Source of the DNA: Terrisporobacter sp.
GTDB taxonomy: Bacteria; Bacillota; Clostridia; Peptostreptococcales; Peptostreptococcaceae
Assembly (NCBI GenBank): GCA_036648085.1
Contig: JAVXJA010000005.1
Span: 1 to 64,000, forward strand
Reading direction: 5' to 3'
DNA length: 64,000 nt
The notes beneath the pieces are model-generated. The model saw only the letters and a list, made by a program, of their open reading frames with translations, searched no databases and was not told the DNA's origin. Shown here in pieces: positions 9,489 through 63,303 of this stretch; the stretch's first letter is position 1, and every line of letters starts with the position of its first letter. Position numbers and translations under genes: made by a program.

Positions 9489-9701
9489 ATGAGTAATAGA
9501 ATGGTAGACCCAAATGCTAAATCAGCTTTAAATCAAATGAAAATGGAAATAGCAAATGAATTAGGCATTAATGACAGTGGTGGTGCAAACCTTACATCTT
9601 ATGAAAATGGAAAAATAGGTGGTGATTTAGGGGGATTAATGAGTAAACAGTTAGTAAAAATGGGAGAAGAAGAATTAATAAGACAATATTATAATAAATG
9701 A
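9489..9701 (+). CDS. ssp: small acid-soluble spore protein, alpha/beta type
   Basis: 70 aa. Two conserved SASP blocks (KMEIANELGI and GGxLTSxxNGKIGGDLGGLMSKQLV). GGAGG ribosome-binding site. Terminator directly downstream. Confidence 0.85.
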   Translation: MSNRMVDPNAKSALNQMKMEIANELGINDSGGANLTSYENGKIGGDLGGLMSKQLVKMGEEELIRQYYNK

Positions 9702-9703
9702 TA

Positions 9704-9734
9704 AGGAGAGGCTAAAATATAGCCTCTTATTTTG
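9704..9734 (+). terminator. Rho-independent terminator
   Basis: agaggct-aaaatat-agcctct hairpin followed by tatttt. Confidence 0.6.
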
Positions 9735-9910
9735 ATGAAAAATATAATAACTATATCTAGAAAAGCTATTTTATACATAGATTTTTATTAAGAATACAGG
9801 ATAAAAAAAGTTTTCTTAAAAAAATATGAAATAAATGGGATTAGATGTAGAAATTATATATATTTGTGCTATAATCATCTTGTAGTAGAATACATGCTAA
9901 GGAGAAACAC

Positions 9911-10387
9911 ATGTTACACACATCACCAGGGTATATTTTAGTTAGAAGTTTTCCAGAATGTGCAGTTGTACTGCTTGTGGGATGCTACTTATTAAAAATT
10001 AAAGTACCAAAAAACATTATATTTAAAAAAACATTAATATTAGGATTAATGGTGTCATTAATCAGAACACTTCCGATTAATTTTGGAATACATACGATTT
10101 TATCTATGACGTGTACTTTATTCATGCTTGCAAATTTAACTAAAGATAGTTTTATAAATTGTATAATAGCAATATGTAAAATATTTATTTCGTTGATACT
10201 GAGTGAATTTGTTTATATATTCTTAGTTACATTTGTATTTAAAATTCCTGAAAGTAACTTGGTAGATAATTATACAGTAAGTAGTGCTATATTCACCCTA
10301 CCTTCACTTTTAATACTTGTTTTAATCTCCGTACTGATACAGTTTGTAACAGATAAGGTAAAGGAAAAGTTTTTAATAGAGGATTGA
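9911..10387 (+). CDS. polytopic membrane protein (about 5 TM), co-transcribed with agrB
   Basis: Hydrophobic throughout. Stop TGA overlaps the agrB ATG (ATGA-type overlap), suggesting translational coupling. Resembles the conserved membrane ORF preceding agrBD in other clostridial agr loci. Confidence 0.55.
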   Translation: MLHTSPGYILVRSFPECAVVLLVGCYLLKIKVPKNIIFKKTLILGLMVSLIRTLPINFGIHTILSMTCTLFMLANLTKDSFINCIIAICKIFISLILSEFVYIFLVTFVFKIPESNLVDNYTVSSAIFTLPSLLILVLISVLIQFVTDKVKEKFLIED

Positions 10388-11019
10388 TGGAAAGTCTTAC
10401 AGAAACGATTTCTTCAAAGTTAGCTTTATATATTGGTGAAAATACAAACAAGTCAGGTGAAGAGTTAGAAGTTTTAAAATACGGTATTTTTATATTTATG
10501 CATATTTTCATTGCAGTTGTTTTTACATTTATTTTTGGATTAATAACTAATACATTATTTGAAATATTAATTATTTCTTTAATAGGTGGTTTAATGAAAA
10601 GATGTTGTGGAGGAGTTCACTCATCTAGCCCAAATAGATGTATTATTACTGGAATTATAGTTTCATACGGTTTTTCCTTAATAGGTAAAAATATAATTAA
10701 CATAAATGGACATATAATTTATTTAATTGTAGGATTAATGTTAATTCATTCATTTTTTATAATTTATAAAAAGTGCCCTGTACCATCTAAAAATAAACCA
10801 TTAAAAAAAGAAGAAACAAGAAAAAAATTAAGAAAAAAAGCTTTTAAAAATTTCTTTATATGCACAATTGGGTTTATATTAAGCATGTTTTATACAAATC
10901 TTAATTACTTAGCAATATGTATGGTTTTAGGTTTGTATATGCAAAGTATATCTCTGACAGCAATAGGAACTAAGGTCATATTGCTTATAGATAAGCTATT
11001 GATAAAGGTGAGAGTATAA
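10387..11019 (+). CDS. agrB: accessory gene regulator protein B (AgrD-processing membrane peptidase)
   Basis: About 210 aa, multi-TM. Conserved AgrB catalytic region KRCCGGVHSSSPNRC (R..GG.H......C). Immediately followed by an agrD-like peptide gene. Confidence 0.8.
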   Translation: MESLTETISSKLALYIGENTNKSGEELEVLKYGIFIFMHIFIAVVFTFIFGLITNTLFEILIISLIGGLMKRCCGGVHSSSPNRCIITGIIVSYGFSLIGKNIININGHIIYLIVGLMLIHSFFIIYKKCPVPSKNKPLKKEETRKKLRKKAFKNFFICTIGFILSMFYTNLNYLAICMVLGLYMQSISLTAIGTKVILLIDKLLIKVRV

Positions 11020-11078
11020 TTTTTAGAAATTAACAAATTATTTGTTAATATAAATTATAATGTAAAGGAGATACTAAA

Positions 11079-11186
11079 ATGGGATTCTTAGTTAATTTTT
11101 TCAACAAAGTAGCTAACAGTGGAAGTACTTACTGTATGGCAATATTTTTTGAGCCAGAAGTACCTAAATCTTTAAGAGAAGAATAA
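11079..11186 (+). CDS. agrD: autoinducing peptide precursor AgrD (35 aa; absent from the ORF track)
   Basis: Translates to MGFLVNFFNKVANSGSTYCMAIFFEPEVPKSLREE. AAAGGAG ribosome-binding site 8 nt upstream. Short amphipathic leader, Cys five residues before the conserved acidic AgrB-recognition tail (EPEVPKSL; compare S. aureus EVEVPKEL). Predicted thiolactone ring is CMAIF. Terminator follows. Confidence 0.75.
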   Translation: MGFLVNFFNKVANSGSTYCMAIFFEPEVPKSLREE

Positions 11187-11191
11187 TAGGT

Positions 11192-11230
11192 AAAAAAACC
11201 ATAAGAATTTTTTCTTATGGTTTTTTCTTA
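11192..11230 (+). terminator. Rho-independent terminator of the agr operon
   Basis: aaaaaccataagaa-tttttt-cttatggttttttc hairpin plus T-run. Confidence 0.65.
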
Positions 11231-11260
11231 ATTTAGAGTCATTTATACTATTTGGAATAG

Positions 11261-13009
11261 GTGAATAAAATGAATAAATTTGATCAAGAAAGAAATATAA
11301 AAATACTGGAAATATTAGTAGGTTTAAAATTTTTATATATTATATTAGCCAGCTTAAATATAATTAGTTATTATAGTATATCCTTAGATATAAATAGCGC
11401 ATTACTATTAATTGTATCTGATTGTTGCATAGCATCATTTATGGTACTATGTTCAAAAATGATGTATGGAAATACTAATAAAAGTTTTCTGAATACGCCT
11501 AATATGTATAACATAATCGAAGCTAGTATAATATTATGTTTGTTTATTGCGTTAATGGCAAAAACAGGAGGAGTTAATAGCTCATTTAAATATATAGGGA
11601 TGATAATTATACTAATATCTTCTATTCAGTATAATAAAAAAATAAGTTTTTCAATTGCTTTAGCAGTATCCATGATAATAATGTCATTTAATTTTATAAA
11701 TGTAAATTCACCTCAAATAATTGATGAATTACAAGTTACGCATTATTTTGAGGGGGATATAATTTTAGTTAGTTCTTTATTAATAACTTCATTTATTCTA
11801 TCCCATTATATAGAGATAGAAAAAGATCATAACTTAAAATTAACGGAATTAGCCATTAAAGATGGTCTAACCGGTTTATATAACCATAGAAGTTTCCAAG
11901 ATGTACTAGATGAATATATGGTTAAAGCACATAAGGACAATAAAGAAGTTTCTCTTCTATTTATGGATATAGATAATTTCAAAAACTTTAATGATGTAAA
12001 TGGACATCAAAAAGGGGACTGGCTGCTTACAAGGTTAGGTAAAGTTTTAAAGGACACAGTAGGCGATGTTGGAGTAGTAACCCGTTATGGTGGAGAAGAA
12101 TTTGCCATATTATTGTATGATAAGACTGAAGAATTTGCTTTGGAATTAGGTGAAAGGATTCGTCAAAATATACAAATTACCTATTTTAAAGGTCAAGAAC
12201 ATCAACCTAATAAAAATATTACTGTTTCAATTGGTGTATCATCGTATCCAAATATGGCAGGAAACAAAAAAGAGCTGATTGAACTTGCGGATAATGCTCT
12301 ATATAGAGCTAAATCCTTTGATAAAAATAGAGTTGAAAGATACTATAACATATTAGATGAAATAGATAGTAGTATTAATAAGCAATCATTACAATCTATA
12401 GCAAGTATACTAAATAGAATAAATAAGAAAGATAAGTATACTTATGGTCATTCAGAGAGGGTTGTAATTTATGCTAAAAAATTTGCTAATCATTTAAATT
12501 TAAAAGAATCACAAAAAAAAGATTTACTTTTAGCAGCTTATTTACATGATATAGGTAAGTTGGAAATTTCCAAAGAGCTTTTAAATAAAAGAGAAAAGTT
12601 ATCACAAAGTGAATTTAATATATTAAAACAACATCCTACATTAGGATCAGATTTGGTTAGTTTAATTAAAGAATTTAAGGATGTAGAACCTATAATTAAG
12701 CATCATCATGAAAAATTTGATGGAAGTGGATATCCGAGTAACTTAGAAGGAACGTCCATACCATATTTAGCAAGGATACTTACTATTATAGATAGTTTTG
12801 ATGCTATGACATCTAAGAGGCCTTATAACGTTAGAAAAGATTACAACCAAGCGATTATTGAATTAAAACAATGTTCGGGGAGTCATTTTGATAGTAAGTT
12901 AGTGTCGAAATTTATAGAGATGTTGCAAGATGATATGCTAGAGAAAGAGTTACCAAAAGATTTAAATAATGTTTTACTGAAAAAAGATAAGCCTAATATG
13001 GGAGCTTAA
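11261..13009 (+). CDS. membrane-anchored c-di-GMP signalling protein: N-terminal polytopic sensor domain + GGDEF (diguanylate cyclase) + HD-GYP (phosphodiesterase)
   Basis: About 190-aa N-terminal region with 5-6 predicted TM helices. GGDEF domain with RYGGEEF active-site motif. C-terminal HD-GYP domain (HD at LHDIGK; HHEKFDGSGYP). Confidence 0.8.
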   Translation: MNKMNKFDQERNIKILEILVGLKFLYIILASLNIISYYSISLDINSALLLIVSDCCIASFMVLCSKMMYGNTNKSFLNTPNMYNIIEASIILCLFIALMAKTGGVNSSFKYIGMIIILISSIQYNKKISFSIALAVSMIIMSFNFINVNSPQIIDELQVTHYFEGDIILVSSLLITSFILSHYIEIEKDHNLKLTELAIKDGLTGLYNHRSFQDVLDEYMVKAHKDNKEVSLLFMDIDNFKNFNDVNGHQKGDWLLTRLGKVLKDTVGDVGVVTRYGGEEFAILLYDKTEEFALELGERIRQNIQITYFKGQEHQPNKNITVSIGVSSYPNMAGNKKELIELADNALYRAKSFDKNRVERYYNILDEIDSSINKQSLQSIASILNRINKKDKYTYGHSERVVIYAKKFANHLNLKESQKKDLLLAAYLHDIGKLEISKELLNKREKLSQSEFNILKQHPTLGSDLVSLIKEFKDVEPIIKHHHEKFDGSGYPSNLEGTSIPYLARILTIIDSFDAMTSKRPYNVRKDYNQAIIELKQCSGSHFDSKLVSKFIEMLQDDMLEKELPKDLNNVLLKKDKPNMGA

Positions 13010-13096: not shown

Positions 13097-13876
13097 ATGA
13101 AAGGGGATAACATGGGGGATATAGGGGTTAAATTTAAATATTTAGATGAATATAATGTAGAGTTATTAAAAAAAGTGAATCAAAATATAAATAATTTGAA
13201 GGATGAAAAACTTAATAGTGAGATAGTATCAATATTTGAAGATATAACAAATGAAATAGATGATAGTGTTTATACTGCAAAAGAAAGTAAAAAAATATTA
13301 ATTTCTTTGTTTTATGCTTTAGAAATAATAAGAGAAAATATAGAAAAAAATGGTATCGTTAGACAGAATGAATTTTTTGAGGAAGAAAAAAATCAAGATT
13401 CTATAGCGAAAGAGCTATTAGAAGGAATGATAATATCCGCGAAAAATGAATATGAAGAAAATAAGTTAAGGTATTATGGTTATTTATTAGGAAATATATT
13501 TTTTCAAAATGATTTATATAAAGATGAAAGTAATAGATTAATTAGGATAATTAGAACCTTATCTTATTGCCAAATTAGGTTAATAAATATGTATGTAATT
13601 TCACAGACTATACAAGTTCCTATTTTAAAAAGAGAAGACTATATAAAATGTGGAATACATGATTATAAATTATTAGGTATTTTACAAGACACTTTAGATA
13701 TGATACAAAAGGGAATATTAAATGGAAGTGGTAAACTAGTTTTAGATGTAGTTCAAATAAATCCATCAAAAATAAAGGTTCAAGGATGTGGAACTCTTCT
13801 TTATAATTTGATGTGCTTGAATAAAATGCCGTATGATGAATTAGAAGACTTATTAGAGATTTTATCAAATAAATAA
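13097..13876 (+). CDS. hypothetical protein (no recognisable domain)
   Basis: 259-aa ORF with a terminator on each side, forming its own transcription unit. Confidence 0.45.
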   Translation: MKGDNMGDIGVKFKYLDEYNVELLKKVNQNINNLKDEKLNSEIVSIFEDITNEIDDSVYTAKESKKILISLFYALEIIRENIEKNGIVRQNEFFEEEKNQDSIAKELLEGMIISAKNEYEENKLRYYGYLLGNIFFQNDLYKDESNRLIRIIRTLSYCQIRLINMYVISQTIQVPILKREDYIKCGIHDYKLLGILQDTLDMIQKGILNGSGKLVLDVVQINPSKIKVQGCGTLLYNLMCLNKMPYDELEDLLEILSNK

Positions 13877-21508: not shown

Positions 21509-22480
21509 ATGAAAAACAAAAGAAATAGCGTAGAGTTAGTGTCACCAATAGGGAGATGTTGTGTGCACGTGGATTTAAGAAATCCAAGTAATGAATATAT
21601 TGAGGCAAAGTTGTCACCTTTTGCTTCATATAAAGGGGACAATCATAAAATCAATAGACCAAAGAGAACCACATCCAAATCAGAAGTTGATTTTTTATTG
21701 GAAAAGGGACATGTAGGTGAAATAGAAAAAATGATTTTAGTAGCAATAAACCATTTGGTTTTTGCCACATCTCTGCAAATTACAACATATATCAATAAGA
21801 CAGGTATAAAGATTGAATCAAAGTCTGTAGCAAGAAAACTGACTAGATTAAAGGAAAAAAGCTTTGTAAAACAAATAGAATTTATATCAGAAAATAGTAT
21901 AAGTTCTTATAAAGCGTATTATTTAGGATATCACGGAATTGGTCTTTTGAGAGCATTAGATAGAAAAACTTATTCTCAAGGATATGTAAGTGAAATAAAA
22001 ACTGCTAAAATAAAATGTTTATTAGCATCTAATCAATTACTAACACAGGTTATGAATGGGGAAGCAGATTTTAAAGTATCTAAGATAATATTAAATGAAA
22101 GTATAAGAAATTGTATAGTGAGACCGCAATCCATATTAAATACTAATAGTAAATCATATCTTGTGGAGGTTGTAAGAAAAACAGAGAATTGGAAAGAAGA
22201 TTTTGTAAATAAACTTGCAAGATATGAAAACGTTATTGAAAATTATGAAACTTTAAATATTAAATTTAAAGTTAAACCTACCTTAATAATACAAGGTGAA
22301 TCATATGATCATATGATTGAAATTATGAGTACAACCAAAGAAAGAGAAGAAAACTCTAATATAAATATTATTTATACATATGATAGAATTCTCCTATATA
22401 ATGTAGAAGAAGCTTTCTTCTCACTAGAAGAAAAACAAGTTAAAAAGAACTTATTTTCATTTTTATTTAGTAAATGTTAA
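21509..22480 (+). CDS. hypothetical protein (possible winged-helix region), orphan ORF in an AT-rich island
   Basis: 323-aa ORF with poly-G ribosome-binding site (GGGGGGG). Terminator downstream. No confident family assignment. Confidence 0.4.
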   Translation: MKNKRNSVELVSPIGRCCVHVDLRNPSNEYIEAKLSPFASYKGDNHKINRPKRTTSKSEVDFLLEKGHVGEIEKMILVAINHLVFATSLQITTYINKTGIKIESKSVARKLTRLKEKSFVKQIEFISENSISSYKAYYLGYHGIGLLRALDRKTYSQGYVSEIKTAKIKCLLASNQLLTQVMNGEADFKVSKIILNESIRNCIVRPQSILNTNSKSYLVEVVRKTENWKEDFVNKLARYENVIENYETLNIKFKVKPTLIIQGESYDHMIEIMSTTKEREENSNINIIYTYDRILLYNVEEAFFSLEEKQVKKNLFSFLFSKC

Positions 22481-38712: not shown

Positions 38713-39441
38713 TTGATTTATATTATACAAAATGTGGGTGATAATTTGAATTCAGGTGCAAGTAAGATTAAATTAAAAGATAAAGAATATATATTAGATG
38801 TTGCTTTACTTTTAGTATTGATACAAATAGGAAGAATCATCATAAAATACATATTTTTAAGTCAGTTAAATTTCACATACGAAAATGTGAATATTGCTAA
38901 TATAATATCATTTATGTTAGTAGGAATAAGTATAGCTCTTTTTTTAAGAGGAAGTGATATGTTTAATTCTGCAGGACAAAGGTTAATAAATCTTAATAAT
39001 AAATATCATAATAAAAATAAAAGAATAACTTTAGGAGTAGTAACTGTACTAGGAATAGTTATTTCCTTTTATTATGAAGGTGGTTACTTTATGACTGCCT
39101 TAACATTATTAACTTTGTCACTAATAATAGAGCCAATATTTGAAGAAATATTATTTAGAGAATATTTATGGAATTATATTGGAAACTATGAAAAGGATGA
39201 TAAAAAAATATTAATTATTATTAGTATTTTATCTGCATTATTTAAAATAGGTTATTGGGATATAATAAGTCAAAATTTAAGTGTAATAGGAAGTTCATCA
39301 TATACTATAGATATTGTACTTACAAAAGTGTTTTTAGGATTAATAGTTTCATTACTTTTAGGTGTTATTAAAATTAAATTTAAGGATACTTATTTGTGTA
39401 TTTTTGTACATAGTATAGTAAATATTTTTATTGGAAGATAA
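38713..39441 (+). CDS. CPBP family intramembrane metalloprotease (CAAX protease / Abi domain)
   Basis: Multi-TM. Conserved EExxFR motif (EEILFREYLW) and distal His motif region (FVHSIVN). Confidence 0.7.
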   Translation: MIYIIQNVGDNLNSGASKIKLKDKEYILDVALLLVLIQIGRIIIKYIFLSQLNFTYENVNIANIISFMLVGISIALFLRGSDMFNSAGQRLINLNNKYHNKNKRITLGVVTVLGIVISFYYEGGYFMTALTLLTLSLIIEPIFEEILFREYLWNYIGNYEKDDKKILIIISILSALFKIGYWDIISQNLSVIGSSSYTIDIVLTKVFLGLIVSLLLGVIKIKFKDTYLCIFVHSIVNIFIGR

Positions 39442-61219: not shown

Positions 61220-61410
61220 TTTTACCTCCAAATTTATTTTAAATTCAAGTATTAAAATTATAGACAAGCATAGGTTTGTTTATACAAAAAAACATATGTG
61301 AAATTTATTTCCATATAAAGTAAGGATAAATGATCAAAACAGTGATATAATTAATTGGAGTGAGGAATTTTTTATACAATTATGAACTATGGGAAATAAG
61401 GGGTTTTATT

Positions 61411-63303
61411 ATGAGAAATGATATATTTGAAAATATAATAAAAAATAGTAAAATAGCCTATTCTAAGATAAATTTCACAAAAAATAAAGAAGACAAATAT
61501 ACGGGAATAAGTGTTATTGAACAAAATAAGGAATTTGAAAAAGTAGCAAGACTAGTAAGCGATAATAATATATTAAGTAATGATGCTGCTGAGCTATTAA
61601 TTAATAATTGGATTCGTAGGACATATACAGCTGATGAATTTGATTTATTAATAAAAGATGTAATAAACAATGGACAGGCAAGAATAGAATACTCAGTAGA
61701 ATTGAAAGATAAAAAATTAATTGTAGATATATATAATTTAGAGAAGTACATCTTACTTATATATAATCTAGAAGGTGATAAAGCAAGGTCGGATAATAAG
61801 CTAAAGTCATATAACTGGGCTAAGGATTTAGATGGAAAGTACATAGTTGCTTATAAGGATTATTATAATTATTTAACTGAACAAAATGAAAAACATAGAG
61901 GTGAAATAATTGGTAAAAAAGACATAGAAATATGGAGTCCAGAAGAAGTAAAAATATTTAGAGAACATGAAAATGAAGTAATCTCAAAAAGATTCTTGAA
62001 AACTTATTATGAAATTATAACAGATAAAAAGGGACGAAAAAAATATATGGAGTGTACTCTTTGGCCGTTATTTGATAAAGATAATAATATTATAGGTACA
62101 AGAGGAACAAGCATTGAAATTAATGATAAGTTAGCTTTTGAAAAAAGTATGGAGCAAAATGAAGAAAGTTTTAGGGAAATAACAAAATATTGTGAATCAG
62201 TCTTTATTATAAGGGATAAAGTAAGAGCAACTTATGTAAGTCCATCTTTTAAAAACATATTTGAGCAAGAACCAGAGGATTTATATCATGATATAGATAA
62301 ACTAGATGAATATTTTAGAAGAGTAGAATTAGAGAATAATTACATAAGTGATGAATTTAAATTTAATGAATCAAATGAAGGTATAGGAAAAGTAAAACTG
62401 GATAATGGAAAAGAAAAATGGATATGGTATAAATTTTTACCGATTAAAAATTCTAAGGGAAATATAACGAAAAGAATAGGAATACTAACAGATGTAACAG
62501 AAAAGAAAAAACTTGAAGAAGAAAAAAATCAACTTGAATTAGATTTTTTTGCAAATTTATCACACGAATTAAGAACACCAATCAATCTTATATCAAGTAC
62601 AATTCAGCTAATCAAAATGAAGTTAAATAAAAAATCACCAGAAGAAATTGACAAGCTATACAACTATATGGATATTATGGAAATTAACAGTCTTAGACTA
62701 TTGAAATTAATAAACAGCCTACTAGATTCTTCAAGAATTGATGCCGGTTACGTTAAATTTGATCCAGTAAGTGGAGACATAATTAAATTCATTGAAGATA
62801 TCTGTGAATCAACAATTGATTTTGCGAAAGTGAATAATATGGAAATAATTTTTGATACTAATAGTGAGGAAGAAATAGTACTATTTGATCCGGATATTGT
62901 TGAAAGAACTATGTTGAACTTATTATCTAACGCAATAAAATTTAATAGAATTAATGGAATGATATATGTGAATATTTATATAAAAGATGATGAAATTAAA
63001 ATTGTAGTAAAAGATGAAGGTATAGGCATACCAAAGGAAAATAAACATTTAATTTTTGATAGATTTGAACAAGTAAGTAGTAGAAATAGAGCAGAGAAAC
63101 AAGGAAGTGGTATAGGCCTTTATTTAGTTAAATCATTAGTTGAATTACATGGTGGAAGTATTAGAGTTGAAAGTGAAATTAATAAAGGTAGTGAATTTGT
63201 AGTATGTTTACCTAAGTTAATACAGAAATCAAGTGAGCAAAATATGATGGGAAATAATGACTTTATATATGCTGAGGCTAATGTTGAATTTTCTGATATA
63301 TAA
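61411..63303 (+). CDS. cytoplasmic PAS-domain sensor histidine kinase (orphan, no adjacent response regulator)
   Basis: No TM. PAS-like regions. HisKA H-box FFANLSHELRTPIN. HATPase_c N/G boxes (LLSNAIKFN, DEGIGIP, GSGIGL). ATG 61411 after an AAGGGG ribosome-binding site. Confidence 0.8.
   Translation: MRNDIFENIIKNSKIAYSKINFTKNKEDKYTGISVIEQNKEFEKVARLVSDNNILSNDAAELLINNWIRRTYTADEFDLLIKDVINNGQARIEYSVELKDKKLIVDIYNLEKYILLIYNLEGDKARSDNKLKSYNWAKDLDGKYIVAYKDYYNYLTEQNEKHRGEIIGKKDIEIWSPEEVKIFREHENEVISKRFLKTYYEIITDKKGRKKYMECTLWPLFDKDNNIIGTRGTSIEINDKLAFEKSMEQNEESFREITKYCESVFIIRDKVRATYVSPSFKNIFEQEPEDLYHDIDKLDEYFRRVELENNYISDEFKFNESNEGIGKVKLDNGKEKWIWYKFLPIKNSKGNITKRIGILTDVTEKKKLEEEKNQLELDFFANLSHELRTPINLISSTIQLIKMKLNKKSPEEIDKLYNYMDIMEINSLRLLKLINSLLDSSRIDAGYVKFDPVSGDIIKFIEDICESTIDFAKVNNMEIIFDTNSEEEIVLFDPDIVERTMLNLLSNAIKFNRINGMIYVNIYIKDDEIKIVVKDEGIGIPKENKHLIFDRFEQVSSRNRAEKQGSGIGLYLVKSLVELHGGSIRVESEINKGSEFVVCLPKLIQKSSEQNMMGNNDFIYAEANVEFSDI

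Follow-up and report, generated by a model that had tools for sequence, protein, structure and literature searches.

The Agr system is the model of peptide quorum sensing in Firmicutes, and in the agrBDCA locus of Staphylococcus aureus the AgrC sensor varies with AgrD across specificity groups. To our knowledge, a histidine kinase is the reader of every Agr peptide characterized to date. The term "orphan" is applied to many clostridial agrBD loci, for which receptors are disputed or have yet to be assigned. [quoted passage not shown]

In Clostridium perfringens, agrD is located between CPE1561 and CPE1560 (PMC2706048) and the published core of its product is CLWFT (PMC7300355, PMC2706048). The peptide is read through the unlinked VirS/VirR system, in which VirS both binds and responds to it, and Li and McClane consider that a second peptide receptor remains possible (PMC7492741). 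C. difficile, which is related to Terrisporobacter, has an AgrC-like kinase, RgaS, but this is not what receives AgrD1, and the AgrD1 receptor is yet to be identified (PMC10602386).

This article describes an agrBD cassette of Terrisporobacter sp. that is followed by a gene for a membrane-bound GGDEF/HD-GYP protein. Judged from sequence, positions 9848-13009 of the window (the whole stretch of 64,000 nucleotides that was analyzed) on balance probably form a self-contained Agr-type quorum-sensing module, the cognate receptor of which would be a c-di-GMP enzyme and not a histidine kinase.

Organization of the Cassette

An earlier note on this DNA had listed a membrane ORF, agrB, a 35-aa agrD, a terminator and a GGDEF/HD-GYP gene, and all of these were recovered where it had placed them. 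The features of the cassette are as follows.

9848..9875, + strand: promoter-like site 5' of memORF; TAGAAA, 16-nt spacer, TG-extended TATAAT (consensus scan; putative function)
9911..10387, + strand: memORF, cassette gene 1, 158 aa, five-helix membrane protein
10387..11019, + strand: agrB, putative AgrD-processing membrane peptidase (PF04647, E 1.4e-33)
11079..11186, + strand: agrD, pheromone precursor, 35 aa (TIGR04223, E 5e-8)
11193..11226, + strand: hairpin, terminator or attenuator, in the gap between agrD and the candidate receptor gene (terminator scan and RNA fold)
11270..13009, + strand: 6TM-GGDEF-HD-GYP gene, whole, 579 aa, 66 kDa (ORF list and exact 579-aa match to P0001)
11270..11830, + strand: 6TM sensor domain, residues 1-187 of the GGDEF/HD-GYP protein; proposed pheromone receptor module
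11855..12331, + strand: GGDEF diguanylate cyclase domain (PF00990, E 1e-41)
12419..12901, + strand: predicted HD-GYP c-di-GMP phosphodiesterase domain (HD_5; PF13487, E 2.5e-39)

The first gene, memORF, has no Pfam or NCBIfam match, and its AlphaFold model consists of five long helices (pLDDT 82). Its stop codon overlaps the agrB ATG at 10387 (TGATG), an arrangement by which agrB is translationally coupled to it. That memORF is one more Agr component, as had been suggested, is supported by its conservation and by its position inside the variable block described below; its product might assist in processing or export, or might partner the sensor in the membrane. Paralogy between memORF and the enzyme TM domain was ruled out, both BLASTP and hhalign being negative.

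AgrB gives a full-length match to PF04647 and has the catalytic His...Cys pair of AgrB-family membrane peptidases (GGVH78...C85), with His78 and Cys85 seven residues apart, a spacing that we take to equal that of H77 and C84 in S. aureus AgrB. AgrD scores above the cutoff of TIGR04223 and below that of the Pfam AgrD model. Its Cys lies five residues ahead of the cleavage site, its tail is acidic and contains proline, and its predicted thiolactone ring, CMAIF, is followed by FEPEVPKSLREE; this C-x4 ring and FEPEVPKSLREE align with the form CLWFT-HQPEEPKSLRDE, and throughout the orthologue alignment the tail is conserved and the ring residues are variable.

A -35-like element, an extended -10 and a ribosome-binding site before memORF are kept in seven Terrisporobacter loci, and in an alignment of these seven promoters no LytTR- or VirR-type direct repeats were evident 5' of memORF. 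The hairpin downstream of agrD has a 15 bp stem, and an 86-nt stretch folds at -22.7 kcal/mol (z -3.95 against shuffles). A hairpin occupies the same position in 27 of the 31 loci tested across genera, with stem sequences that differ and T-tails that are often weak; it is presumably leaky, permitting read-through into the receptor gene. The gap between hairpin and start codon is about 35-45 nt, and a consensus scan found no convincing promoter in it. An Rfam scan of the window returned no c-di-GMP riboswitch and no other RNA.

The fusion of GGDEF and HD-GYP domains in the last gene, as originally described, holds, but its start had been placed at GTG 11261, giving 582 aa. That start is less likely than ATG 11270, which is the most likely one because it has an AGGTGA ribosome-binding site and because the database protein P0001, an exact match from a Terrisporobacter MAG, is 579 aa long.

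Conservation of the Four-Gene Order

With memORF as the anchor, 43 informative metagenome loci were obtained; in 40 of them the enzyme gene lies 3' of agrD, and two of the 43 have memORF-agrB-agrD without it. The four-gene order, the conservation of which in relatives had been put forward as a check, is present in seven Terrisporobacter loci; in Romboutsia and Paeniclostridium the cassette sits between sigG and nrdR, and it is found in many species of Clostridium, with other flanks in C. tertium, C. sartagoforme and C. gasigenes. Because the arrangement is repeated in those 40 loci, and across five or more genera whose flanks differ, the adjacency of agrBD and the enzyme gene is far beyond chance.

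The cassette is also found in loci whose AgrD bears the CLWFT core. These C. perfringens-type loci were recognized in the metagenome scan by that published core, so that their species assignment is presumptive. Given the location of agrD between CPE1561 and CPE1560, their 563-aa 6TM-GGDEF-HD-GYP protein is taken to be CPE1560, and by position and domain order memORF corresponds to CPE1562. CPE1560 has a predicted mass of 64.7 kDa; a band of ~75 kDa has been recovered in a pull-down with the C. perfringens peptide (PMC7492741).

The earlier note had also held that no AgrC kinase or AgrA regulator is encoded in the 64 kb. An AgrC-type kinase is indeed absent from this stretch, but one orphan histidine kinase is present at 61360-63303, 50 kb from the cassette, with a PAS-PAS-HisKA-HATPase_c architecture that is not of the AgrC type; no response regulator was detected in the 64 kb with a receiver-domain HMM that we assembled from three sequences and that has limited sensitivity. 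Beside agrBD, where a canonical agrBDCA locus has an HPK10/HATPase_c_5 AgrC and a REC-LytTR AgrA, the next gene is the GGDEF/HD-GYP gene. The further assertion that this enzyme acts instead of a two-component system is not claimable, as the view is one of 64 kb and as C. perfringens-like loci share the cassette, in a species whose peptide is read through VirS/VirR.

Allelic Variation Within the Cassette

Same-species pairs of loci, none of them including the window, reveal how the cassette varies. In the pair L159 and L160, flanks are 99-100% identical at the nucleotide level over more than 7 kb and the catalytic parts are 100% identical, yet identity is only 47-77% between the start of memORF and the point where the TM domain ends, and the AgrD rings differ (CWWCA in one, CWWAM in the other). 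Between L102 and L103 the block is 49-78% and the catalytic region 97-100% identical, identity being regained across nt 2575-2800, with the TM/GGDEF junction at nt 2667-2686. An allelic block of the pherotype type is likewise seen in L094/L090, and the local identity dips of Terrisporobacter L004 versus L153 and of C. perfringens-like L099 versus L104 take in the initial ~250-290 nt of the candidate receptor gene.

The same boundary is apparent among 240 homologues, in which 113 pairs have a catalytic identity of at least 96% yet a TM identity below 80%, down to 53%, whereas the opposite discordance (TM domain conserved, catalytic part divergent) is rare (4 pairs). Mismatches start at about 70% and are down to 1-2% once residue 161 is reached. 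What was found is the architecture of a pherotype system, with a within-species allelic block that takes in AgrB and AgrD but, of the candidate receptor gene, the sensor part alone; alleles of memORF, agrB, agrD and the TM domain co-segregate as one block. A variable block that ends near the TM/GGDEF junction mirrors the agr specificity groups of S. aureus.

Omega is below 1 everywhere and synonymous divergence (dS) is also raised in the block, and positive selection can therefore not be claimed; the block pattern reflects old recombining alleles. At deep divergence, partial Mantel tests gave a TM-domain covariation that was not above controls, that of memORF and AgrB being stronger. Partial Mantel tests of the AgrD ring against the TM domain were dropped as evidence, since the control (ring versus GGDEF given HD-GYP) was equally "significant".

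The Enzyme and Its TM Domain

The GGDEF active site is intact (RYGGEEF), and GGEEF is invariant in the 240 homologues. The allosteric RxxD inhibitory site (I-site), an optional element five residues upstream of GGDEF, is missing in the window, where GDVG stands at that position; among the 240 homologues it is found only in the Clostridium group, the orthologues of which have R-[ED]-x-D. The HD, HHE..DG.GYP and DxxDA motifs, which serve as signature and in metal binding, are intact in the window and invariant in the 240 homologues, and by these motifs the HD-GYP domain is a predicted c-di-GMP phosphodiesterase.

The enzyme N-terminus is polytopic, as had been noted with a count of five to six TM helices that is now settled as six. 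At 5-7 residues, the loops predicted to be extracellular are very short, and near-invariant polar residues of the domain include G100, S104, K107, Q120 and D163, among others. A likeness to LytS or AgrC had been suspected and was not upheld: none of 30 family members matched 5TMR-LYT at E up to 1, and hhalign, run with the family profile and S. aureus AgrC (a sequence the C-terminal half of which was verified against PDB 6e52 and 4bxi), gave a probability of 0.5%. Pfam 6TM_PilS (PF25323) matches the window domain weakly (E 0.015, 15.5 bits; gathering cutoff 27), matches 18 of the 30 family members (best 3.2e-7) and matches a distant homologue, the kinase P0289, at 1.7e-6. The PilS ligand is a pilin, not a cyclic peptide. 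A PDB sequence search with the TM profile had no matches at E up to 10; the fold resembles that of the 6TM domains found in membrane adenylyl cyclases and in the diguanylate cyclase ImcA, and the domain is probably, going by this modeled fold, a receptor-type 6TM bundle. CqsS, a 6TM quorum sensor, can drive a cyclase once fused to it (PMC4821796). Beside the cassette of L090 and L094 there is a histidine kinase with a fused paralogous 6TM domain, which shows the 6TM domain to be a transferable input module.

Proposed Peptide Signaling Through c-di-GMP

The central proposal of the earlier note, that the peptide is read out via the adjacent membrane GGDEF/HD-GYP protein, loses the AgrC/LytS likeness but gains strong support from comparison because the same four-gene order is nearly universal and because the hypervariable allelic block stops near the TM/catalytic junction of that protein, the allelic evidence being the decisive part. 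In the best reading, the 6TM domain is a candidate pherotype-specific receptor that would turn the peptide signal into c-di-GMP turnover. A single promoter would transcribe memORF-agrB-agrD, and AgrB, perhaps assisted by memORF, would remove the acidic AgrD tail and cyclize the remainder into a hydrophobic thiolactone (predicted CMAIF), while the hairpin 3' of agrD would let part of the transcription reach the receptor gene. The released peptide would then bind the six-helix membrane domain of the 579-aa protein, which would shift the balance between GGDEF synthesis and HD-GYP hydrolysis and so translate cell density directly into a c-di-GMP level. Several observations weigh against this account: the predicted extracellular loops are very short, the TM domain has no homology to AgrC or LytS sensors, two loci have the other three genes without the enzyme, TM-domain covariation was no higher than its controls, and synonymous divergence is raised in the block. 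The generalization that 6TM-GGDEF-HD-GYP proteins are the primary pherotype-specific Agr receptor of Clostridium sensu stricto (including CPE1560) and several Peptostreptococcaceae, with memORF as an obligatory Agr component of the specificity unit, is more tentative, and we give it slightly less than even credence.

It is conceivable, although we consider it unlikely, that the enzyme TM domain binds no free peptide and contacts memORF and/or AgrB in the membrane, the co-variation arising from protein-protein interfaces and the enzyme monitoring or controlling pheromone production in the producing cell (e.g., precursor flux or export). The pair L099/L104 could mean such memORF-TM contacts, as memORF is most divergent there, the TM N-terminus is divergent, AgrB is conserved and the ring changes only from L to I; moreover, memORF and AgrB distances co-vary with the TM N-half (r 0.38-0.55, with controls positive too), and in L090 and L094 a memORF paralogue lies directly 5' of the kinase with the paralogous 6TM domain, with no agrBD between. 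That kinase-linked memORF2/TM pair is, however, not hypervariable, whereas the enzyme TM domain beside agrD is. The agrD ring is also always within the allelic block, L139 and L147 have memORF and agrBD with no such sensor nearby, and memORF and the TM domain are not homologous.

Since VirS/VirR is what senses the C. perfringens peptide, the main receptor, or even the only one, may be a kinase. By analogy with C. perfringens, the same peptide may be read in parallel with the enzyme by a VirS/AgrC-type kinase encoded elsewhere in the genome; that such an unlinked kinase with its LytTR regulator is the sole receptor, the enzyme acting downstream or independently, strikes us as quite improbable. 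The binding and response of VirS (PMC7492741), the presence of the same cassette in loci assigned to C. perfringens and a genome view limited to 64 kb all speak for it, but it leaves unexplained why allelic variation shared with agrD is seen in the sensor domain of the enzyme but not in its catalytic part. The VirS authors themselves allow further receptors (PMC7492741), and the example of RgaS and AgrD1 (PMC10602386) also counts against it. Least of all do we expect the linkage to be transcriptional or physical only, with the enzyme co-expressed by read-through from the agr promoter, c-di-GMP turnover following agr expression, and a TM domain that is a plain anchor or a sensor of an unrelated cue, its variability hitch-hiking with a balanced agrD polymorphism. 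The short gap with no convincing promoter fits this account, the raised synonymous divergence is as expected of linked old alleles, and the covariation statistics did not discriminate. Independent lineages nevertheless regain identity near the TM/GGDEF junction and not scattered over the 1.1-kb catalytic part, two lineages have the TM N-terminus as a separate island of divergence with conserved agrB between it and memORF, and the near-invariant polar TM residues and a fold like that of membrane-cyclase 6TM domains, for which a receptor role is itself a proposal, are at odds with a plain anchor.

If the broader generalization is true, the enzyme would be the first peptide-pheromone receptor to signal directly via c-di-GMP, and memORF would be a previously unrecognized Agr component within the specificity unit. 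For orphan clostridial agrBD loci, the c-di-GMP enzyme beside agrD, being conserved and co-diversifying, is a concrete receptor candidate, one that would tie cell density directly to this messenger. Clostridia, a major toxigenic pathogen among them, would also prove to be polymorphic in pherotype.

Comparison With Known Systems

The C. perfringens array CPE1563-CPE1562-agrB-agrD (PMC2706048) is presumably an orthologous cassette. The order in C. perfringens-like loci is DUF5317, memORF, AgrB, a 44-aa AgrD (ring CLWFT) and the 563-aa 6TM-GGDEF-HD-GYP protein, whereas in the Terrisporobacter cassette no DUF5317 gene is present and AgrD is shorter and differs in its ring. The published C. perfringens receptor is the unlinked VirS kinase (PMC7492741), while the candidate in the window is the adjacent enzyme; a limited literature search found no discussion of the role of the downstream enzyme in C. 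perfringens. As for the 6TM modules of CqsS, membrane adenylyl cyclases, PilS and ImcA, most have no known ligand and their sequence similarity to the window is marginal.

ScrABC of Vibrio parahaemolyticus (PMC11315295) likewise combines a signal synthase and a membrane-bound bifunctional c-di-GMP enzyme in one operon, and, as proposed here, a self-made extracellular signal flips the enzyme between cyclase and phosphodiesterase. It differs in its Gram-negative host, in its small-molecule S-signal of unknown structure, with no peptide and no pherotype polymorphism, in sensing through the periplasmic binding protein ScrB and in having a GGDEF-EAL and not a GGDEF-HD-GYP enzyme.

[quoted passage not shown] In both, AgrB and AgrD make or are predicted to make a thiolactone and a polytopic membrane sensor is encoded directly 3' (outlined in PMC7492741, PMC10602386), and in both the hypervariable block spans AgrB and AgrD but, of the receptor or candidate receptor, just the sensor half, the output half being conserved.

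Organization of the Cassette

The window, which has a G+C content of 27% and whose proteins match Terrisporobacter of the family Peptostreptococcaceae, carries four co-directional genes (the cassette, 9911-13009, + strand) between a spore-protein gene and a hypothetical gene. The layout described in the earlier note, in which a small membrane protein gene (memORF) is followed by agrB, agrD, a hairpin and a gene for a membrane GGDEF/HD-GYP protein (the enzyme), is confirmed by the open reading frames and their domain matches.

Features of the cassette and its neighbours
9489-9701: SASP (spore-protein) gene, 5' neighbour, with its own terminator at 9706-9728
9848-9875: promoter-like site with extended -10, conserved in seven Terrisporobacter species
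9911-10387, +: memORF, 158 aa
10387 (ATG) to 11019, +: agrB, PF04647, E 1.4e-33
11079-11186, +: agrD, 35 aa, TIGR04223, E 5e-8
11193-11226: hairpin after agrD, 15-bp stem and T-run
11270-13009, +: GGDEF/HD-GYP gene, GGDEF E 1e-41, HD_5 E 2.5e-39
13097-13876: hypothetical gene, 3' neighbour

The agrB start overlaps the memORF stop as TGATG, AgrB has the GGVH78...C85 pair, and AgrD reads MGFLVNFFNKVANSGSTYCMAIFFEPEVPKSLREE. The enzyme gene, previously placed at GTG 11261, most likely starts at ATG 11270, because this codon is preceded by AGGTGA and gives the 579 aa of the database protein P0001, an exact match from a Terrisporobacter MAG. The space before this ATG leaves no room for a convincing separate promoter. 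Of 31 loci examined from several genera, 27 have a hairpin 2-18 nt past the agrD stop, with stem sequences that vary among loci and T-tails that are often weak. Transcription probably reads through it in part, which would yield much precursor and little receptor.

Conservation of the Four-Gene Unit

The cassette order is kept in seven Terrisporobacter species, but their entire neighbourhood is syntenic, so genera beyond Terrisporobacter are more telling. The unit lies between sigG and a PRC/nrdR pair in Romboutsia and Paeniclostridium/Paraclostridium, after an Fe-hydrogenase gene in C. tertium and C. sartagoforme, and amid different genes in C. gasigenes, with an additional DUF5317 gene ahead of it in these three Clostridium species. 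A metagenome scan anchored on memORF rather than the enzyme returned 70 loci, which were annotated with HMMs built from the Terrisporobacter, Romboutsia/Paeniclostridium and Clostridium loci. The agrBD-GGDEF synteny that the earlier note had proposed to check in relatives is conserved in several genera with different flanks and in these loci, the 6TM-GGDEF-HD-GYP gene directly following agrB and agrD in 40 of the 43 with sufficient downstream DNA; two of the exceptions (L139 and L147) are without the enzyme gene, and the third (L152) is doubtful.

In L139 (605-1700) and L147 (5974-7130), memORF-agrB-agrD encodes an AgrD of the form ...VFACAYI[AS][HY]QPKTPKSLQR with no GGDEF/HD-GYP gene downstream, and the genes that come next in L147 encode a PHP-type hydrolase and unrelated metabolic functions. 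At L090 (5267-8607), the DUF5317, agrB and GGDEF matches are each broken over two adjacent frames, which indicates frameshifts, from sequencing errors or a decaying cassette. Many Clostridium-type AgrD proteins (L008, L084, L089, L091, L094-L096 and others) have a second Cys in the predicted ring (CFWCS, CVWCV, CYWCF...) and a Cys in the tail (PKCLRDE), so that other ring sizes, or disulfides, are conceivable.

A Hypervariable, Pherotype-Like Block

The decisive evidence for the cassette reading is a block of variation that ends within the enzyme gene. When Terrisporobacter species are compared with the window, identity is 81-86% for the flanking cls and PTS proteins and 51-70% for memORF, AgrB and the enzyme's transmembrane (TM) domain, and the AgrD ring residues differ. 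Loci L159 and L160 (P0187, P0216) share 99-100% nucleotide identity upstream, in the DUF5317 gene, and for more than 7 kb on the downstream side, with 47-77% from the memORF start through the end of the TM domain; their rings are CWWCA and CWWAM. Between L102 and L103, the block is 49-78% identical and the sequence from about nt 2650 to the gene end 97-100%, the TM/GGDEF junction lying at nt 2667-2686. The Terrisporobacter loci L004 and L153, with a background of 96-98%, fall to 69-86% in two islands, one comprising the memORF 3' half and the agrB 5' end and the other running from the agrB 3' end through agrD to ~290 nt into the enzyme gene. In the C. perfringens-like pair L099 and L104 (rings CIWFT and CLWFT), identity drops from a background of 94% to 72-82% in memORF and over the initial ~250 nt of the enzyme gene. 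The pair L094 and L090, with a background of about 90%, shows 57-66% in the TM N-half.

Among 240 full-length enzyme homologues, 113 pairs combine catalytic identity of at least 96% with TM identity under 80% (minimum 53%), whereas only 4 pairs show the opposite. Mismatch frequency in the discordant pairs is about 70% at residues 41-80, below 20% after residue 110 and 1-2% after residue 160. Because synonymous divergence is raised here too, with omega below 1, the block holds old alleles that recombination has moved, and the data do not demonstrate positive selection. In S. aureus, allelic variation between agr specificity groups affects AgrB, AgrD and, of AgrC, the sensor half alone. The block likewise comprises AgrB, AgrD and only the sensor part of a putative receptor gene; unlike in S. 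aureus, memORF belongs to it, and the 6TM domain that stands in for the AgrC sensor is part of a c-di-GMP enzyme.

Proposed Sensor Domain, Catalytic Output and memORF

The five to six helices noted earlier at the enzyme N-terminus are six by family alignment and AlphaFold model (pLDDT 74.6), which give an N-in topology with outer loops of just 5-7 residues. The proposed likeness to AgrC or LytS was rejected, the sensor being unrelated to AgrC. A search through all 1.8 billion representative proteins yielded just 17 relatives of residues 1-190; in a Pfam scan of ten, seven have GGDEF (with or without HD-GYP), two are distant HisKA kinases and one has no Pfam match. Bundles of this type can receive hydrophobic quorum signals, and the 6TM domain of CqsS, fused to a cyclase, gives ligand control (PMC4821796). 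At L094 (10194-12459) and L090 (10375-12432), ~1.1 kb beyond the 3' end of the cassette, a memORF paralogue is immediately followed by a PAS-HisKA-HATPase_c kinase gene whose product bears a paralogous 6TM domain, and this fusion shows that the domain is a portable input module. Between L094 and L090, this paralogue/kinase pair shows no hypervariability.

The GGEEF, HD, HHE..DG.GYP and DxxDA motifs are invariant across the 240 homologues. Both enzyme activities are probably genuine, and the enzyme likely switches between synthesis and hydrolysis, in one direction or the other. At the RxxD inhibitory site, Clostridium-group orthologues have R-[ED]-x-D in the 240-protein alignment and Terrisporobacter has GDVG-like residues, a difference that may extend to feedback inhibition by c-di-GMP.

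memORF, whose helices carry the invariant polar residues E16, R52, H61 and S98-E99, is always upstream of agrB within the variable block; Pfam and NCBIfam scans gave no match, and fold and family searches none that explains its function. It is sometimes duplicated and is prone to this: at L110, L112, L113, L117 and L118, two paralogues, in tandem or flanking a DUF5317 gene, precede agrB. It may partner the sensor in the membrane, which the kinase-linked paralogue favours, or may aid peptide processing or export, which is favoured by L139 and L147, where there is no sensor.

Other Genes of the Window and C. perfringens-Type Loci

Three further genes of the 64 kb have the following products.

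21509-22480, +: Replication-relaxation family protein, PF13814, E 6e-10
38713-39441, +: Rce1/CAAX (CPBP) family membrane protease, PF02517, E 4.8e-11
61360-63303, +: orphan histidine kinase, 647 aa, PAS-PAS-HisKA-HATPase_c

The first, ~8 kb downstream of the cassette, may be a sign of an integrated mobile element. The protease belongs to the same family as S. aureus MroQ, which aids Agr peptide maturation; at 27 kb from the cassette, a link cannot be claimed. The statement that the 64 kb encode neither an AgrC kinase nor an AgrA regulator holds, but the region is not kinase-free: its sole kinase, 50 kb from the cassette, is not of the AgrC type, has no adjoining response regulator, and its N-terminus does not match the cassette 6TM domain. 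A receiver-domain HMM, built from three sequences and of limited sensitivity, found no response regulator in the 64 kb, and an Rfam scan of 1-64000 found no family at gathering score, with no riboswitches (including c-di-GMP), T-boxes or tRNAs.

Six metagenome loci encode the AgrD MKKLNKNLLTLFAALTTVVATTVATSACLWFTHQPEEPKSLRDE, whose core equals the published C. perfringens peptide CLWFT(H) (PMC7300355), and their layout agrees with the published operon of two hypothetical genes, agrB and a 135-bp agrD between CPE1561 and CPE1560 (PMC2706048). We infer that CPE1560 is a 563-aa orthologue of the window enzyme, as encoded downstream of the CLWFT agrD at L104 (3946-5637; 563 aa, 64.7 kDa predicted). 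The C. perfringens peptide is read by VirS/VirR, the authors leaving further receptors open (PMC7492741); with 64 kb as the part of the genome covered, the wording that the enzyme acts instead of a two-component system is rejected. The unexplained ~75-kDa band in the peptide pull-downs of Li and McClane (PMC7492741) is not a match to the 64.7-kDa orthologue and serves as a lead only.

Comparison with Known Systems

Stripped of its AgrC/LytS likeness and of "instead", the proposal of the earlier note that the peptide may be read out through the adjacent membrane GGDEF/HD-GYP enzyme is strongly supported by comparative genomics. A link between agrBD and a neighbouring GGDEF/HD-GYP gene was not found in the full-text literature, where subscription journals are thinly covered and absence is unproven; the receptor of C. 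difficile AgrD1 is still unknown (PMC10602386). The principle exists in ScrABC of V. parahaemolyticus, where a self-produced signal is read by a bifunctional c-di-GMP enzyme of the same operon; there the signal is a small molecule, sensed by way of a periplasmic binding protein (PMC11315295). The cassette resembles agrBDCA in its production chemistry and allelic architecture, but is not a canonical agr locus, since it lacks both AgrC and AgrA and has a sensor of a kind unrelated to AgrC.
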